The position numbers were made by a program, and so were the translations under genes. A stretch of DNA of 32,000 bases. It comes from Candidatus Heimdallarchaeota archaeon (GTDB lineage Archaea > Asgardarchaeota > Heimdallarchaeia > Heimdallarchaeales > Heimdallarchaeaceae). Under the pieces are notes generated by a model, which was not told where the DNA came from, ran no database searches, and was given only the letters and a program-made list of their open reading frames with translations. Within the stretch, counting starts at the first letter, position 1. The number at the start of each line of letters is the position of its first letter. Where the stretch lies: contig DAOVER010000029.1 in the NCBI GenBank assembly GCA_030668875.1, forward strand, positions 1-32,000. Direction: 5' to 3'. Positions 16,430 through 24,019 of the stretch are shown one piece after another.

Positions 16430-18181
16430 ATGAAAGAGAGTATCAAAAAGTTTTTAGAAAAAGAATATCTCGAAACTATACGAATTCATCAACTTCGTCC
16501 GCTATTTGAGAGGTATTTAAACTTAAATTCTGATTTAGTTGAAAAATATGAAAAAGAATATTCTCGTCCCAAAAATTTGATAGTATCTGCTCTATATACA
16601 GCTGATTATATTATAATGTCGTCGGAAGTGAAACTTGAACTTGAAGATGATGCTAGAAGGAAAGAAATAATCGAATTCTGGATAAACCTGAATATAACTA
16701 ATGATGAAATGTGGTACGAATTAACTTACATTGTAGCTTTTTCATATAGAATTGCTTCGATGCTTAGGAAACGTTACTATTATTTAATGGATAGAGGAGT
16801 TGCTAAGCAAATTGCAGCAGCATTGGTAGCTGATTACTTTGTTCGACACCACTTGGAATACACTTCTGACAAATTGAATATCATTCCAACTTGGTGGGTT
16901 GTTTTTCTAATGGAAACAGCTATGTGCCAAACAATATTTTCCACAACTCAAAAGAAGTGGGCTAACATCCAAGAAATACTCCACTCTAATGAAATGGGTT
17001 TATTATCACACATAATTGCAAATAACTTCATAGGGGAAACTATAGGGGAACCCAATCCAGCTGTCCCCATACCATACTTCAAAGATTCTTCTATTTTCTA
17101 CTATGCCACATGGGTTCAAGACACAGTTAAAAAGAATCGATTTGAATCACTGTTACCTGCTAAGACTTCAGCACAAATTCATAAGGAGTTCAAGAAATGT
17201 ACTCCGTTATTGGATTCAAATAATCCACACATCTTAAAATACATGAGACTTGCAGGAAAATACTCGATTTCTTCTCCTGAGATAAATTTCATTATTGCAA
17301 ATTCCCAAATTAATGATGCTGAAGGTTGGATTGGATTGCTTACACCTTTAGATGATATCAATATGAAGGAAATAGAATCCCTATTAAAACTTAAACTAGA
17401 TGATCTGAAAGCTCTTGAAAAATATGCAAAACATCTCCCAACTATTCAAGTTCTTCAGAGGCAAAAGGAAGAACGAGAAGTAGTTGAAGAGATAATAGAA
17501 AAAGAAGAGAAAAAAGGATTCTTCAAAAAGCTATTTTCAGGTTTTAAAAAGAAGAAGAAAAAAGCAGAGCCGAAGAAAGCTGTAAAAATACCACAATCAA
17601 TAGATAAGTGGTATCGATTGGTTTTAGATGAAATACTCATTGCCAGCGTTTCTGGTATAGGACTAGGGTTAGAGATTTATGATTCATATCGTGAGGATAA
17701 TTTCGTAATTAGTGGATTAATTGAGTCGGAACAAAAAGAAACTCAACCCACAGTTTTCTATTCAGAAGCGACTGTCGCATTCCCATCTGAATTTCTAGAT
17801 CCAATTATTAGCCTTATTGAAGTAGGTAAATTGTTTATAGCAACAATAAAAAATGTAGAAACGATTTCAGTTATTCCTGAAGAAGCGTTTTATCGTGATA
17901 AGCAAGATGTAGGTCTCTATAGACTTGTAGAATTTGTTTTCGGTGAAAAACTATTAGTTGGTATATTAGCAGAAAAACAAGCTAGAACAGCTATGACACT
18001 CGCAAGGTCAGAACCAACTTATCAGAGAAGATCACTTCAAAGAAAAGCTAACGAATTCGTACATGCGAGAAGAGTCAACAAAACTGACGACGTAGGTAAA
18101 AGAACACTTTCAAGAGAGATAAATTGGGATACTGTGAAATTAAGTTACGAGGAAAAACCATTGTTTTACAAGAAAAAATAG
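16430..18181 (+). CDS. Hypothetical protein (583 aa) with an internal amphipathic/polybasic motif
   Basis: Long uninterrupted ORF with no recognised family. Contains KKGFFKKLFSGFKKKKKK. Confidence 0.8.
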   Translation: MKESIKKFLEKEYLETIRIHQLRPLFERYLNLNSDLVEKYEKEYSRPKNLIVSALYTADYIIMSSEVKLELEDDARRKEIIEFWINLNITNDEMWYELTYIVAFSYRIASMLRKRYYYLMDRGVAKQIAAALVADYFVRHHLEYTSDKLNIIPTWWVVFLMETAMCQTIFSTTQKKWANIQEILHSNEMGLLSHIIANNFIGETIGEPNPAVPIPYFKDSSIFYYATWVQDTVKKNRFESLLPAKTSAQIHKEFKKCTPLLDSNNPHILKYMRLAGKYSISSPEINFIIANSQINDAEGWIGLLTPLDDINMKEIESLLKLKLDDLKALEKYAKHLPTIQVLQRQKEEREVVEEIIEKEEKKGFFKKLFSGFKKKKKKAEPKKAVKIPQSIDKWYRLVLDEILIASVSGIGLGLEIYDSYREDNFVISGLIESEQKETQPTVFYSEATVAFPSEFLDPIISLIEVGKLFIATIKNVETISVIPEEAFYRDKQDVGLYRLVEFVFGEKLLVGILAEKQARTAMTLARSEPTYQRRSLQRKANEFVHARRVNKTDDVGKRTLSREINWDTVKLSYEEKPLFYKKK

Positions 18182-18289
18182 TCCTTCTCTCCCACTTTTC
18201 CCACTTATTTGCGGAAAAAACTACTAGAAACTATATATTAAATCATGTGAATCTTAATATAGAAAGGTAAGTGGGCTAGGGGCAAATAT

Positions 18290-19090
18290 ATGAATGACCA
18301 TAATACTAATGCAAATTTCTTCTTCTTACGAGGAAAAGACGGGTTCCTTAAAGGTAATTATCAGAATTGTATAAAGGATTTAATGTATGCACAAGAGATG
18401 TTTACAACCATAGGTAATAAAGAGAAATCTGCAGAAAGTTCACTTCTTTTAGCTTCAGCATACTTTAACATCACTCGTTTTGATCAATCAAGATTGATGT
18501 TTGATCGAGCATATTCTAGGTTCAAAGAACTTAACAAACTAGTTAAATTAGGAGAATGTGCGTTAGCTCTTGGAGAGATCTATAAGGAAGAAGGGGAGTT
18601 CAAGCGAAGCAGACAGTATCTATTAGAATCAATACATATTTTTACTAATCTAAAAGATACAGAAAAACTAGCTGATTCATGGAAGCACCTAGCTGAAGCA
18701 TATCAAATGGATCTTTCAGATTCACATGATCATCAAGTTAGTATTGTTGAAGCTTACAGAACAGCACTTGGTTATTATAAAAAAGCAAAAAATAACAGAA
18801 TGAAAGCAGAATGCGAATTTGATTTGGGGCATGTATTAATCTCCCAATCTAATTTTTCAGCGGCTTTGAAATTTCTCTCTCCTGCATTCAACTACTTCAA
18901 GGAAATAAATAATCACGATAATGTAATTACAATTGCAATACTAATTGGTCGAATATATTTTGAACTTAGGAAAAAACCTAAAGCTAAGGAATACATGTTC
19001 GAAGCTATAAATCAGATGAAAAAGGCTAATTATAATCCTGAAAAGATTGGCTCTGTACAGAATACAATTGCTTCCATGTTTGCAGGTTAG
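18290..19090 (+). CDS. Tetratricopeptide-repeat protein
   Basis: Repeating helical units of about 40 aa (LASAYF...FDRA; LGEIY...GEF; LGHVLI...NFSAAL; IGRIYF). Confidence 0.8.
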   Translation: MNDHNTNANFFFLRGKDGFLKGNYQNCIKDLMYAQEMFTTIGNKEKSAESSLLLASAYFNITRFDQSRLMFDRAYSRFKELNKLVKLGECALALGEIYKEEGEFKRSRQYLLESIHIFTNLKDTEKLADSWKHLAEAYQMDLSDSHDHQVSIVEAYRTALGYYKKAKNNRMKAECEFDLGHVLISQSNFSAALKFLSPAFNYFKEINNHDNVITIAILIGRIYFELRKKPKAKEYMFEAINQMKKANYNPEKIGSVQNTIASMFAG

Positions 19091-19091
19091 G

Positions 19092-20690
19092 TTACTTTCT
19101 CACAAATAATAGTTGCTTATAGGTTATTGCAATATCGTCACTTGGGATTAAAATTTCAATCTTTTTGAAACGTTGTGTAGCTCTTAAAAGATCATACACA
19201 AATTTAATATCAAAATCCTCGTTATGTTTATTTTCTCTGAGCTTCTTAGGTAAAATGTGTCCAATTACCTGATATCCTGAGAATACTTTTCGTTTTTTCC
19301 TTAGATCTTTTTCATCCATTGTTGTACCTACAAACAAAAGTGATTGTATATCATCATCATGGTTTAAAGCGGTAATAGCAAAGATTTCTAAATTTATCAG
19401 TATTTCATCCTTACTATTTCTGTAGAAAAATTTGCTTATATTGTCTTTAAGTACATACCTATCTTTAATGGAAATAAGTAATTTCTCTTCTATCAATTCT
19501 CTCGAAAGAGCAAATGTAGCATCAGAGTCACTGACAGCATTAGCAAATTCCACGCTCTGGGTGTTATCACTAATTAAGCATGGACTATTGAATTTCAATG
19601 TTAACTTTTTCAGTGACTGAGTTGTCTGTGAAGACGAAGCAAGATCATATATCATAGATATCCCTAGAAGCTGAGCGAGTGTATATGCATAACCTTTCCT
19701 AATCCGCCTTTGATGGTCATCTGTTGTATAAGAGGAAAATTCTATCGCTTTCTCAAAGTAAACTAAAGCCACTTTGTACTCTTTGTATTCTGCAATACCA
19801 TAAGCTACAGCAGAATAAAACATCGCTTTCTTGTTGCGATTTAATCCTTCTATAAAATCATCTATTTGTTTTATTGATGGTTCTAGTAAGCTATCTGAAA
19901 GTTTCAAAACACTTACAAGTATGGTTAAACGTCTAGTTGCTTCATAATCCGACTTCAAAAACTTAATTGCTCTTAAAACAACACCTACACCCTTTAGTAT
20001 AGTTCCCTTATTCTTCGAAACAACTGCAAGTCCAGGGTTATCAGAAAACAATTGTAGGAAGAAATCTGAAGGCATGATAATTTTTTCGTTCGGGTAAGGT
20101 TTCGAAGTAATTATATCAATTATATTTGAGCAAAATTCTGCTGCTTTATTTGTTTCTTTTTTGAATAGATGCATTAAACCAATATTAACATCACAAAATA
20201 CGATGTTCTCATGTAGACTGTGTTTTTCTGATAATTCTTTAGATTGAAGAAGAAAACCCATTGCTTTGTCTTTTCCAATTGTCCTATTTATAACAAATAA
20301 CATGTTATAGACCTTAATCTGTATCTTTGGATCCTTCAATTTCTTAGCAAGAACATCTGCTTTTGTAACCGCTTTTTCAGCGCCCTCATAATCATTAGAA
20401 AGCAAAAATGAATCTGCTAATGCTAAGTAGAAAAAGGCAGTTAATATTTTAGGAACTAAAGGTAGTAAAACCTTAACATGACGTAGTATTATCATTCCTT
20501 CGTCTCTATTTTCCAAATTGAACTGTTTCTTACACTCTGTTAACATGTATTCTACGAGATCAATTACGGTCAGATTTTTTTCCAGTTGTAAATCTTCTAA
20601 AATTTTGGTGAATTTAGATTTATCCTTTACACTATTTGCGAAGGTTTGGGTTTTTGTAGACTTAAGATAATTGTGTAATAACACGGTCAT
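19092..20690 (-). CDS. TPR-like alpha-solenoid protein with an unknown C-terminal alpha/beta domain
   Basis: LADSFLLSNDYEGAEKA, IGLMHLFKKETNKAAE, VAYGIAEYKEYKVALVYFEKA. Confidence 0.7.
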   Translation of the reverse strand: MTVLLHNYLKSTKTQTFANSVKDKSKFTKILEDLQLEKNLTVIDLVEYMLTECKKQFNLENRDEGMIILRHVKVLLPLVPKILTAFFYLALADSFLLSNDYEGAEKAVTKADVLAKKLKDPKIQIKVYNMLFVINRTIGKDKAMGFLLQSKELSEKHSLHENIVFCDVNIGLMHLFKKETNKAAEFCSNIIDIITSKPYPNEKIIMPSDFFLQLFSDNPGLAVVSKNKGTILKGVGVVLRAIKFLKSDYEATRRLTILVSVLKLSDSLLEPSIKQIDDFIEGLNRNKKAMFYSAVAYGIAEYKEYKVALVYFEKAIEFSSYTTDDHQRRIRKGYAYTLAQLLGISMIYDLASSSQTTQSLKKLTLKFNSPCLISDNTQSVEFANAVSDSDATFALSRELIEEKLLISIKDRYVLKDNISKFFYRNSKDEILINLEIFAITALNHDDDIQSLLFVGTTMDEKDLRKKRKVFSGYQVIGHILPKKLRENKHNEDFDIKFVYDLLRATQRFKKIEILIPSDDIAITYKQLLFVRK

Positions 20691-20765
20691 TATTACACGA
20701 ATAAAGAATTGGAATAAATTTCTTTTGTTCTTCCATTTTTCTTGAAGATGGAAAAAATAGATCTT

Positions 20766-22268
20766 TTATTGGCTAATTCGCTTCTTTAATTCTTTTGTTA
20801 AATCAGAGATTAATACTAGAGATTCCTCTCTTGTCTCTAAATTTTTAAGAGTTACGCTCTTATTTTCTAAATCTCTTTCGCCAACAATAATCATATATGG
20901 GATATTTCTGTTTATCGCATCTTGGAGTTGTTTCTTACGGTTCCAGCCAAATGGGTTAAATAATGTTGCAAAGTTGTCTCTTAGAGTTGCAACGATTTCA
21001 GCTGCAACATCAGTGACATCTTTTGTCATTGATGTAACATAGACCATAGCAGGATGTTTATACTTTTCTAGCTTTCCTTGCTCTTTTAGAATGGAATAAA
21101 GAACAGTTTCACCCATACCTATTCCAGTACAAGGAATTTTTCCACCACCAAAGTTCTCCACAAGTTGATCATATCTTCCGCCTCCAGCTATTGCCCTCAC
21201 AACAGAACCTGTAGTATCATAGAATTCGAATACTATTCCTGTGTAGTAATCAAGACCTCGTGCTACTGAGGCATCGTAAATGCAAGTATCAATAACTCCA
21301 AACATTTTCAAATGGACAGCAAGCTCACTCATTTTATCCAATATTTCTTTGGTTGCTTCATCTAAATCAATCTCATTTTGCATTTGTTCAATGAAAGCTT
21401 CTGGATTACCTCTGATATTAGAAAATACATATAGCTGATCTGATTGTAAATCAGTTAAACCTAGTTCTTTGAATGATTTCTTGATTACATTCTCAGCAAT
21501 CTCTTGTAAGCTATCAACATAAGCAACCAAATTAGAATCCTTCTGAAGTATTGAACTGTATCTTTCTAATTTTGGATCCTGCATCCATACAGTTCTAACT
21601 ATCATAGAGAGATCTTCAGCTTTTTCTTTCTTAATTTTCTTATCTATTAAATCCTGTTTAATATAACTTTGAACATGTTTTTCACGAGAATCTATAGCTC
21701 TTATGATATCAGGTATATTTTCAACACCCAAGTGATTCAGAAAATTTTGAACTAATTCTCTGCTATTGATTGTACATACAAACTCGTCTTCTTTTAGTCC
21801 AGCTTGTTTGATTATTTGAGTAGTAAGAGCTATAATCTCAGCATCAGCACCAACGTGATCAACACCGATAATATCAGCATTAAATTGGAAATGCTCTTTG
21901 ACTCTTCCCCTTTGAGGTGTTTCATCTCGGAAAATTCTCGGAATAGAATACCATCTCATGGGTTTGGGATACCTTTGATGTTGATTAGCAATTAATCGTG
22001 CCAAAGTAGGAGTTTGCTCTGGTCTAAGAACTAATTTACGCTTTTCTCTATCTTCTAGGCTATATATTTCTGCATACAAATCTTTTCCAGACTTGTACTC
22101 AATCAATTTAGCATACTCTAGGGAAGGTCCTTCATACTCCTCAAAACCGAACTTAGCAGAAACACCGTGCATAATATTAAGAATCTTATTGATTTCAGCA
22201 TAATCCTCTGGGAAGAAGTCTCTGAATCCTTTGATACCTTTAAGAATCTCTTTTAGTTCAGAATCCAT
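20766..22268 (-). CDS. hisS: Histidyl-tRNA synthetase
   Basis: GFRDFFP, LRPEQT, FRDETPQRGR-EHFQ, ARGLDYYTG, GGGRYDQL, C-terminal anticodon-binding domain. Confidence 0.97.
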   Translation of the reverse strand: MDSELKEILKGIKGFRDFFPEDYAEINKILNIMHGVSAKFGFEEYEGPSLEYAKLIEYKSGKDLYAEIYSLEDREKRKLVLRPEQTPTLARLIANQHQRYPKPMRWYSIPRIFRDETPQRGRVKEHFQFNADIIGVDHVGADAEIIALTTQIIKQAGLKEDEFVCTINSRELVQNFLNHLGVENIPDIIRAIDSREKHVQSYIKQDLIDKKIKKEKAEDLSMIVRTVWMQDPKLERYSSILQKDSNLVAYVDSLQEIAENVIKKSFKELGLTDLQSDQLYVFSNIRGNPEAFIEQMQNEIDLDEATKEILDKMSELAVHLKMFGVIDTCIYDASVARGLDYYTGIVFEFYDTTGSVVRAIAGGGRYDQLVENFGGGKIPCTGIGMGETVLYSILKEQGKLEKYKHPAMVYVTSMTKDVTDVAAEIVATLRDNFATLFNPFGWNRKKQLQDAINRNIPYMIIVGERDLENKSVTLKNLETREESLVLISDLTKELKKRISQ

Positions 22269-22345
22269 GATATATTCAAATTAAAAAATAATAGAAATTA
22301 TTTAATGTTATTGTTCATCAATGCTTGTGAAAGACTACTTGATGG

Positions 22346-23341
22346 TCATGAATTGTTTTCTAAATAGGAGATTTCAAACATTGGTAGCTCTTTCTCAGAC
22401 CAGAAGGATTGGTTGTTAATCAAGTATTTCATAAGATACCCTGTTAAATCAGATTCTGATATATCAGCACCTTTATCCTCTCTCAATCCCTGTATTTCGA
22501 TGATGAATTCAGTTAATAATTTCATCAACAAATTGGCACCCTTTATTTTTTTATTCTGATTAATCATATTTGTCATCAACCAGCATGATGTTTGATTGTC
22601 AGCTGCCATTACTACTTGTCGTCCGTTAATATTCATGTAATCAAGAATTGATTCATTTCCAGAGGCAAATTTGTAGCGAATGACAGGAAACATCCCTTCA
22701 GTATCATTAATCGCGGATGGAGAGCGAATTCTTGCCTCAATTATACCTTTATCGGTTTTTAGATAAGCAATGAAAGACTCTACAGATACTCCTGTGCTCA
22801 TTAGATTTGTGATAATTGTGTTAGCTAACCAATCAATTGTTTTATTTAGATTTTCACCAGTAATTGGAGATACACTAAAACATTCAATCAATTGTAGACG
22901 AGAATATGATTTAAACAAGTTGGAAACAGTATTGATCTCTTTTTGGTTAATCTTCTTATCCCAAGTATTAATTAAAACAAGTATAGGTGAATCCTTTTTA
23001 ATCCACTTCAGAGAACGAACAAACCATTTCTCTGATTCTTTAATCTGATGTTCTTTAGTTGCATCAACGACAAAAATGAGCGCATCGGAACGAGAGATAT
23101 AGCTAGGCCAAAGAGATTTTCTAAAAGGTTCTTTACCTCCTAAATCTGTCAAACCGAGTTTCAATCCATCAATATTAACTATTTCTTGATTAATTCCATA
23201 TGTTGAATAGGTTTCAGTAATCTCTTCATTCAGGAGCTTATTAATAATAGTAGTTTTTCCAACCCCGTCTAATCCAGCGACTGATATAGATACATCTCTA
23301 TCATTCGATAACCAATTTGAATTTGAATTAGGACCTAACAA
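22346..23341 (-). CDS. Arf-family-like small GTPase fused to a C-terminal longin-like domain
   Basis: G1 GLDGVGKTT, G2 STYGIN, G3 DLGGK-FR-LW-Y, IFVVDA, G4 NTWD, G5 SPITGENL-IDWL, plus an extension of about 150 aa. The TTG start is uncertain. Confidence 0.85.
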   Translation of the reverse strand: MLGPNSNSNWLSNDRDVSISVAGLDGVGKTTIINKLLNEEITETYSTYGINQEIVNIDGLKLGLTDLGGKEPFRKSLWPSYISRSDALIFVVDATKEHQIKESEKWFVRSLKWIKKDSPILVLINTWDKKINQKEINTVSNLFKSYSRLQLIECFSVSPITGENLNKTIDWLANTIITNLMSTGVSVESFIAYLKTDKGIIEARIRSPSAINDTEGMFPVIRYKFASGNESILDYMNINGRQVVMAADNQTSCWLMTNMINQNKKIKGANLLMKLLTEFIIEIQGLREDKGADISESDLTGYLMKYLINNQSFWSEKELPMFEISYLENNS

Positions 23342-23403
23342 ACTGTGTTCACTTCTTTCCCCGCTTCACACAAATAGTGTGATGAATCTATTAGAAAAAC
23401 CCC

Positions 23404-23428
23404 TATATATATATTGGTAAACCAATAT
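23404..23428. promoter_or_regulatory. TATA-like tract abutting an 8-bp inverted repeat in a divergent intergenic region
   Basis: TATATATA (23404-11) and ATATTGGT-AA-ACCAATAT (23411-23428). Confidence 0.5.
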
Positions 23429-23575
23429 TAAAAATTTATTTAGTTCGGCAATTAAGTCGGGAAATTGTACTAAATCAATTAACACATTGGATAGGCAATG
23501 CAAATAAATTGTGATTTAAGAATAAGCTTATATGTAACTCAAACTAGTACAAGTTAATCACTAATAGGGATTATC

Positions 23576-24019
23576 TTGCCAGACATACTTTCATCAGAAA
23601 AAGCCGAAATACGGGAGATAGCAAAAAGTTATGCTCAAGCTTTGTGGACCATACCCTTTAACAAAGGTTTCATAGCATATATCAAAACAAGTGATGAGAT
23701 CTCCGTTCATCCAGCACGTTGGAGATATTGTTTTAAATGTGGAATGATTTTAAGAACAAATTTAGTCAAAAATGATGAAACTGCTGATGAAACAAGGAAT
23801 CATGCATGTATCTTAGAATTTGAAGATATACCATTATTAATAAAAACTTCATGGATTAAGTTGCGAAAATTCTTTCTTATAGATGAGAATCATAAAAAAA
23901 TTCTGAAGGAAATAGGGTTAACTATATTACCTAAACCAATTATTATTACAAAATCAACTTTAGAAAGAGAATCAACTAAGAAAGACATTTCTGAAGGATT
24001 TACTGAAGAGTCGACATGA
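23576..24019 (+). CDS. Hypothetical protein with a possible C2HC zinc site
   Basis: TTG start with upstream AGGGA. Contains YCFKCG and NHAC. Confidence 0.6.
   Translation: MPDILSSEKAEIREIAKSYAQALWTIPFNKGFIAYIKTSDEISVHPARWRYCFKCGMILRTNLVKNDETADETRNHACILEFEDIPLLIKTSWIKLRKFFLIDENHKKILKEIGLTILPKPIIITKSTLERESTKKDISEGFTEEST

Follow-up and report, generated by a model that had tools for sequence, protein, structure and literature searches.

An Arf-like GTPase with substituted G3, G4 and G5 motifs and a C-terminal longin-type domain, restricted to one family of Heimdall archaea and proposed to load GTP spontaneously

The gene at 22346-23341 on the reverse (-) strand of the window (the whole 32,000-nucleotide stretch of Heimdallarchaeota DNA that was analysed) translates to a protein of 331 amino acids in which an Arf-like GTPase domain is followed by a C-terminal longin domain. 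Our preferred reading, held with moderate confidence, is that this is a family-restricted Asgard Arf-like-longin GTPase which takes up GTP spontaneously and remains switched on as long as no partner intervenes; judged by its motifs, it is likely to be a slow-hydrolysing, fast-exchanging switch. Fusion of a GTPase to a longin domain is itself an already described Asgard theme and not novel: longin domains fused to Lokiarchaeal Arf-like GTPases date from 2016 (Klinger et al. 2016, as summarised in PMC4917890), fusions of Rag-family GTPases to longins were noted by Liu et al. (preprint 10.1101/2020.10.19.343400), and Tran et al. 2024 (PMC10933270) described 26 roadblock- or longin-fused GTPases in a single genome, many of them annotated as Arf. 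Within this theme the window protein is a distinct variant by virtue of its conserved Lys/Thr/Pro motif set, an extra C-terminal strand and a narrow, single-copy distribution.

The coding frame opens with a TTG codon and ends in a TAA/TAG-type stop at 22346-22348. The TTG start is credible because the orthologues, which open with MLG..., share this start position and because the first internal methionine of the window protein is not reached until residue 181. Within the intergenic stretch 23342-23440, a TATA-like ATATATATATA run lies about 65 nt upstream of the TTG and a purine-rich GGGGAAAGAAGTGA stands immediately before it, making it plausible that the GTPase-longin gene has its own promoter and ribosome-binding site. 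The divergent open reading frame at 23576-24019 (147 amino acids) has no counterpart adjoining the orthologues that were examined. The first 15 residues of the protein (23297-23341, same strand as the gene, as are all its parts given below) are variable and polar in the alignment, and the model has a pLDDT below 50 for residues 1-12. Both the Arf-defining N-terminal amphipathic helix and the Gly2 that often accompanies it are missing, as the preliminary description of this DNA had stated: residue 2 is Leu, and the hydrophobic moment of the variable N-terminus is 0.24-0.50 compared to 0.49-0.63 in three ArfR-like paralogs.

Residues 16-182 (22796-23296) make up the G domain, which the earlier description had called Arf-type and which the Pfam Arf profile matched accordingly (PF00025, E 2.1e-27, 96.1 bits against a cut-off of 22.3, residues 11-176 on profile positions 9-174), with Roc, SRPRB and Ras as weaker matches. 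Translation of the exact coordinates (22346-23341, reverse strand) placed all of the motifs claimed earlier where they had been described, including the three substitutions Gln to Lys at G3, NKxD to NTWD at G4 and SA to SP at G5. The G1 P-loop GLDGVGKT (residues 23-30, 23252-23275) is intact, and Thr47 of switch I (23201-23203), which is invariant, is the equivalent of the Mg-binding Thr in the TIPTIGFN of Arf. G3 reads DLGGK (residues 66-70, 23132-23146) followed by EPFRKSLWPSY, with Lys70 replacing the catalytic Gln, so that where Arf proteins have WDxGGQ the window protein has TDLGGK. The G4 motif, canonically [NT]KxD, is NTWD (residues 125-128, 22958-22969), in which the Asn and Asp are retained and the Lys has become Thr, and G5, canonically SA[KL], is VSP (residues 157-159, 22865-22873), in which Pro159 replaces the Ala whose backbone NH touches the O6 of guanine.

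These motifs are not due to chance or sequencing error, since they are conserved across 21 orthologues (45-92% identity) that were aligned. The nucleotide-binding core, consisting of G1 GxxxxGK[ST], the switch-I Thr and G3 DxxG, is present and invariant in 21 of 21; invariant positions include the P-loop Gly, Lys and Thr, Thr47, Gly49, Asp66-Leu-Gly-Gly69, Arg74, Trp78, Asn125, Asp128 and Ser158, while Lys70, Glu71, Thr126, Trp127 and Pro159 are nearly invariant. Neither Gln nor His was ever found at the G3 catalytic position among the members of the orthologue group examined; the residue is mostly Lys, with Arg in one member (P0046, which also carries NKKD at G4 and SS at G5), Ser in another (P0044) and Asp in a third (P0056). 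This last, a metagenomic representative of 347 amino acids that is 39% identical to the window protein, is the most divergent member of the group; with DLGGD as its G3 and NQWN as its G4 it lacks the guanine-specifying Asp, yet it retains the G5 SP and the longin domain, and it may be further along towards a nucleotide-independent protein.

The same positions were compared in 174 G domains from outside the group, comprising the nearest ones in a library of 1.84 billion proteins together with the paralogs from the same genome. The G3 residue was Gln in 119 of these, His in 24, Arg in 4 and Lys in 2, and the G4 Lys was retained in 172; Thr at the position of that Lys (NT.D) and Pro at the position of the G5 Ala each occurred in none of the 174. 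Together with the variation inside the orthologue group, these counts place the loss of the catalytic Gln at the group's base. NKWD is common among the related two-domain GTPases, including the paralog L013, suggesting that NTWD is derived from it.

A search of 399 Asgard genomes with a profile of the C-terminal domain (E<=0.001) found one copy each in 28 of the 29 genomes of the family to which the window belongs (Heimdallarchaeaceae by source names), covering five genera, and no match at that threshold in the 370 genomes of other Asgard families; in the genome of the window itself the window gene was the only one found. Around 50 full-length relatives (311-334 amino acids, 45-92% identity) were obtained from a word-indexed search of 5.8 billion proteins, and all of those with a named source are from Heimdallarchaeota or Heimdallarchaeaceae; the next-best matches were eukaryotic Arf/Arl proteins, aligning over the G domain only. 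One orthologue, that of AB_125, has the accession OLS32647. Pairs involving the window's own copy were uninformative for dN/dS because their dS was saturated, so closer orthologue pairs with unsaturated dS were taken, and these gave values of 0.04-0.17 for the G domain and the C-terminal domain alike. By this measure both halves are under purifying selection, and the odd motifs are upheld by selection rather than being products of decay. A tree of 109 G domains placed the orthologue group as a clade with 100% support on a stem of 0.62 changes per site, within the Arf-like set and away from the Ras-like set; the clade did not group with the genome's own trio of ArfR-like proteins, and the tree pinned down no exact sister for it.

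The positions at which Gln has become Lys, NKxD has become NTWD and SA has become SP are all classic sites in Ras where mutations impair hydrolysis or make exchange fast; contacts to the base in Ras come from the G4 Lys and the backbone NH of the G5 Ala, and changes at the equivalent residues K117 and A146 accelerate exchange. We propose that the protein would be soluble, since no amphipathic helix and no membrane segment were noted, and that it would still bind Mg-GTP, since it retains the P-loop, the Thr of switch I, DxxG and, among the G4 residues, Asn and Asp. Its intrinsic GTPase activity would probably be low, given that the catalytic position of G3 holds no Gln or His and varies between Lys, Arg, Ser and Asp, while loss of the G4 Lys and of the G5 Ala backbone NH would leave the guanine base gripped less tightly than in canonical relatives, with faster exchange as the expected result. 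Such a switch would load GTP spontaneously, and turning it off would depend on a partner, if on anything; conservation of the switch regions implies that the nucleotide state is still read. Loss of the Gln is in itself no proof of slow hydrolysis, as Sar1 and SRbeta use a His, Rap uses a residue of its GAP and the HAS-GTPases take other routes. Lys70 is unlikely to be catalytic because the residue that replaces Gln is itself unconstrained across the group, and the strongly conserved switch II, including the nearly invariant Glu71, could be hiding an alternative catalytic arrangement.

A different account of the same motifs, and one which we consider rather unlikely, is that the protein is a normally cycling GTPase that switches off like other small GTPases, the catalytic residue being supplied in trans by a GAP or, on dimerisation, by the partner protomer; folliculin/NPRL2-type longins, which are abundant in Heimdall genomes, would be the candidate GAPs. 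Switch I and switch II are conserved as strongly as the P-loop, as would be expected if the nucleotide state were read and regulated, and the strong purifying selection also fits this account. However, in the known longin GAP complexes and in most GAP systems of the Ras superfamily the GTPase keeps its own Gln and the GAP gives an arginine finger, whereas here the position is occupied by Lys, Arg, Ser or Asp, and no regulator gene was conserved beside the GTPase-longin gene in the orthologue neighbourhoods that were examined. Longins of the FLCN/SMCR8 type with an arginine finger are encoded by Heimdall genomes, and GAP-type longins are defined by a GP motif which precedes strand 2 and lies next to that finger (PMC12290439). 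The protein's own longin domain lacks this motif, the loop ahead of strand 2 reading T-D-K-G-I/L with no Pro in any orthologue; it shares the longin fold of the catalytic FLCN/NPRL2/SMCR8 longins (structural Z of 7.5 to NPRL2 and 6.9 to the FLCN complex) but differs in the absent GP motif, by which assignment as a FLCN-type GAP longin was ruled out.

The preliminary description had also entertained a pseudo-GTPase, and a protein of this kind that binds no nucleotide became unlikely once the P-loop, Thr47, Asp66/Gly69 and Asn125/Asp128 proved to be invariant or nearly so. A true pseudo-GTPase scaffold, with its nucleotide site empty or with nucleotide held as a structural cofactor without switching, seems improbable to us: three of the five G motifs depart from the canonical form and the divergent P0056 has lost even the G4 Asp (NQWN), as might be expected of such a scaffold, but the invariance of GxxxxGK[TS], Thr47, Asp66, Gly69, Asn125 and Asp128 in the 21 orthologues would be difficult to account for if phosphate, Mg and guanine were not contacted, and real decay looks different, as in the paralog L015, where G3 reads EAGEE.

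The C-terminal longin-type domain spans residues 185-310 (22412-22789) in the AlphaFold2 models and in the comparisons with VIA-align, Foldseek and hhalign, and it has the beta-beta-alpha-beta-beta-beta-alpha-alpha order that had been predicted for the C-terminal 150 or so residues. AlphaFold2 returned a pLDDT of 74 for the full-length protein (with the full alignment), and of 77.8 with a pTM of 0.76 for the domain alone (residues 181-331, with a 30-sequence alignment); the elements are strands at 187-195 and 199-206, a helix at 212-216, strands at 232-238, 241-247 and 251-257, helices at 269-293 and 296-309, and an extra strand at 321-328. The domain model has a short helix alpha1 and shows the conserved PVIRYKFA segment as coil. 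That extra strand belongs to a conserved C-terminal extension, QxFWSE..PMFEIS (22349-22411), which AlphaFold2 models as one beta strand (residues 321-328). Trp314, Pro320 and Glu323 of this tail are invariant, and it has no counterpart in the paralogs.

The structural comparison that had been proposed as a check on a longin-like fold came out in its favour, with longin domains as the top structural matches. An exhaustive VIA-align comparison of the domain model with 48,161 PDB representatives gave Z scores of 9.3 for VAMP7, 9.2 for Sec22, 8.9 for synbindin and 8.5 for a TRAPP core subunit, values around 9 being only modestly above the 7-8 often seen for models that match nothing clearly; NPRL2 (8fw5_C) followed at 7.5, a Lokiarchaeal longin at 7.1, and the FLCN complex (6ulg_N) and SRX at 6.9 each, with the longins of AP sigma/mu, Lst4, Ykt6, C9orf72 and Mon1-Ccz1 in the same stretch of the list. 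Each of the top longin matches aligned about 120 residues, including both C-terminal helices, while the roadblock proteins MglB and MglC (Z 6.1-6.6) aligned over the first 107-112 or so residues only, without those two helices. The top Foldseek match of the domain was also a longin, that of Ykt6 (E 7.6e-3). By the definition of Tran et al. (PMC10933270), the core of a longin is roadblock-like, but the helix at the N-terminus is missing and there is a second one at the C-terminus; the predicted five-stranded sheet with two C-terminal helices fits this definition. By sequence, residues 180-331 had no Pfam match and the C-terminal profile found nothing among PDB chains at E<=10; hhalign, however, aligned 118 columns of the profile with a profile built from the C-terminal domains of related Arf-like GTPases with two domains (probability 68%, E 4.8e-5), and some of those related domains match Fuz_longin_1 (9e-6), Robl_LC7 (2e-5) or Sybindin (2e-3). 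A cluster of Thorarchaeota "Arf family" proteins in the ESM Atlas also matched the domain model (TM 0.62). The best matches being longins, we assign the domain to this fold with the medium confidence of a model with a pLDDT of 78. It is very doubtful that the domain is instead a GAF-, PAS- or profilin-like sensor of a small molecule or peptide that controls the G domain, with no role as a GTPase platform: a GAF domain (4g3k) did reach a Z of 6.7, the polar or reactive residues Glu202 and Ser252-Cys253-Trp254 are invariant on the sheet and the domain has no sequence match to a Longin or Roadblock HMM, but the matches at the top of the structural list are all longins spanning both C-terminal helices, GAF and roadblock matches being shorter and weaker, and the related two-domain GTPases bear domains that do match longin or roadblock HMMs.

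Under the preferred reading of a spontaneously GTP-loading switch, the longin domain would serve as a protein-protein platform, either in self-association like the C-terminal domains of Rag proteins or, on the pattern of SRX-SRbeta, as a docking site for a regulator or for the switch face of the same protein. A homodimer prediction with two copies of the C-terminal domain scored 0.00, which is evidence neither way.

Among known structures, the closest G domain by sequence is that of HodArfR1 (8oul, E 2.2e-26), and Foldseek matched the ArfR structures 8ouk and 8oum at TM 0.77-0.79 with 28-30% identity. The ArfR proteins (HodArfR1 and GerdArfR1; 10.1101/2024.02.28.582541) share with the window protein the P-loop GLDxxGKT and the switch II pattern xDxGGxxxxRxxWxxY, but they are single-domain proteins with an amphipathic N-terminal helix, a catalytic Gln, NKxD and SA. 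Over the full length, the best Foldseek matches were LokiRagO (8yl2), RagA/C and Gtr1/2 (E 2e-11, about 315 columns), which bears out the Rag-like overall layout of GTPase plus platform that had been suggested. The Rag/Gtr proteins and LokiRagO (8yl2, 6s6a, 3r7w) likewise have an N-terminal G domain and a C-terminal alpha/beta platform; they differ in that the platform is a roadblock domain rather than a longin, in the relative orientation of the domains (rmsd 14-16 A) and in the retention of the catalytic Gln by the Rags. The possibility of a true Rag/Gtr orthologue was rejected, as there was no match to Gtr1_RagA (PF04670) at E<=1 and Rag-like genes are found elsewhere in the genome. SRbeta-SRX (1nrj) resembles the window protein in pairing an Arf-family GTPase that lacks the catalytic Gln with a longin-type domain, and both SRX (Z 6.9 to the domain model) and SRPRB (a partial match) showed some similarity; the differences are that SRbeta and SRX are separate chains, that SRbeta is membrane-anchored and carries His at G3, and that the longins of SNARE and TRAPP proteins match the domain model better than SRX does. 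An SRbeta orthologue was likewise rejected, the SRPRB profile scoring 40 bits over residues 18-110 only compared to 96 bits for Arf, and the N-terminus not being hydrophobic.

The Arf profile gave 37 matches in the genome from which the window comes (3.2 Mb in 99 contigs). Three of these are the short ArfR-like proteins (L004-L006), which have an N-terminal amphipathic helix, DVAGQ and NKQD, and about nine further paralogs of 300-410 amino acids combine an Arf-like G domain with a C-terminal extension; in these two-domain paralogs G3 is DxGGH or DxGGQ, G4 is NKxD (HKSD in L016) and the G5 residue is usually Ala, Val or Met. The window group is like other Asgard two-domain GTPases in that its Arf-annotated G domain precedes a longin/roadblock-superfamily domain of about 130-150 amino acids, and a weak relationship between the C-terminal domains can be detected (by the hhalign match given above, E 4.8e-5); it differs in having Lys, Arg, Ser or Asp for Gln or His at G3, NTWD for NKxD and SP for SA, in adding the conserved PMFEIS strand and in being single-copy and confined to one family.

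Several of the paralogs lie as adjacent or nearby pairs on the same strand, namely, outside the window, L013/L009 (contig C18:1769-3178), L010/L011 (C18:14568-17400) and L015/L007 (C71:34403-35845), and such adjacent pairs of two-domain GTPases are, by analogy, reminiscent of the pairs that form Rag heterodimers. L015 has an intact P-loop with a degenerate G3 and switch I and adjoins L007, which has DLGGH, so from their motifs these two may be a pseudo-GTPase/GTPase pair. PF04670 has 17 matches in the genome, the window gene not being among them; the best matches to this Gtr1/RagA profile are at C54:27739-28203 (in a 641 amino acid frame, 95 bits) and C88:31200-31868 (in a 413 amino acid frame, 66 bits, with HKSD at G4), and both frames are candidates for true Rag-like proteins with additional domains.

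Downstream of the GTPase-longin gene, on the same strand, are genes for histidyl-tRNA synthetase (HisRS) and then for a TPR-like protein of 532 amino acids, and genes for a SNAP-like TPR protein of 266 amino acids and a protein of 583 amino acids are nearby. Together these form a block of five genes (583 amino acid protein, 266 amino acid SNAP-like TPR protein, 532 amino acid TPR-like protein, HisRS and GTPase-longin; window 16430-23341) that is kept together across five genera. The order GTPase, HisRS, 532 amino acid protein is the same in three genera, a fourth genus has a 4.5-kb insertion between the GTPase and HisRS genes, and in another genome of the family the block is inverted and still clustered. 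Since TBP and HisRS have housekeeping roles and the genomes are all from one family, we read the block as inherited synteny and not as proof of a functional operon. The 583 amino acid neighbour had no Pfam match and no usable match in the ESM Atlas, and the 532 amino acid neighbour gave generic TPR-like matches only in the latter. In the sensing of amino acids, tRNA synthetases have been reported to be linked to Rag GTPases, and a bolder version of our reading, which we hold to be highly improbable, is that the protein is a constitutively GTP-loaded Arf-type module, independent of GEF and GAP, whose own longin domain clamps the switch face in cis and which acts together with HisRS. If true, this would make it a single-chain analogue of SRbeta-SRX or half of a Rag dimer, and would provide an archaeal parallel to those links.

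Asgard archaea encode dozens of small GTPases and longin or roadblock proteins, which have a central place in the debate over how eukaryotic membrane traffic and Rag- and SR-type signalling arose. The orthologue group described here leaves the picture of the kinds of protein that Asgard archaea possess unchanged, and offers a clean experimental object: a soluble-looking protein of 331 amino acids, single-copy and near-universal in one Heimdall family. How it handles nucleotide would reveal whether Asgard lineages had already evolved GTPase-longin units that are always on or dependent on a partner.
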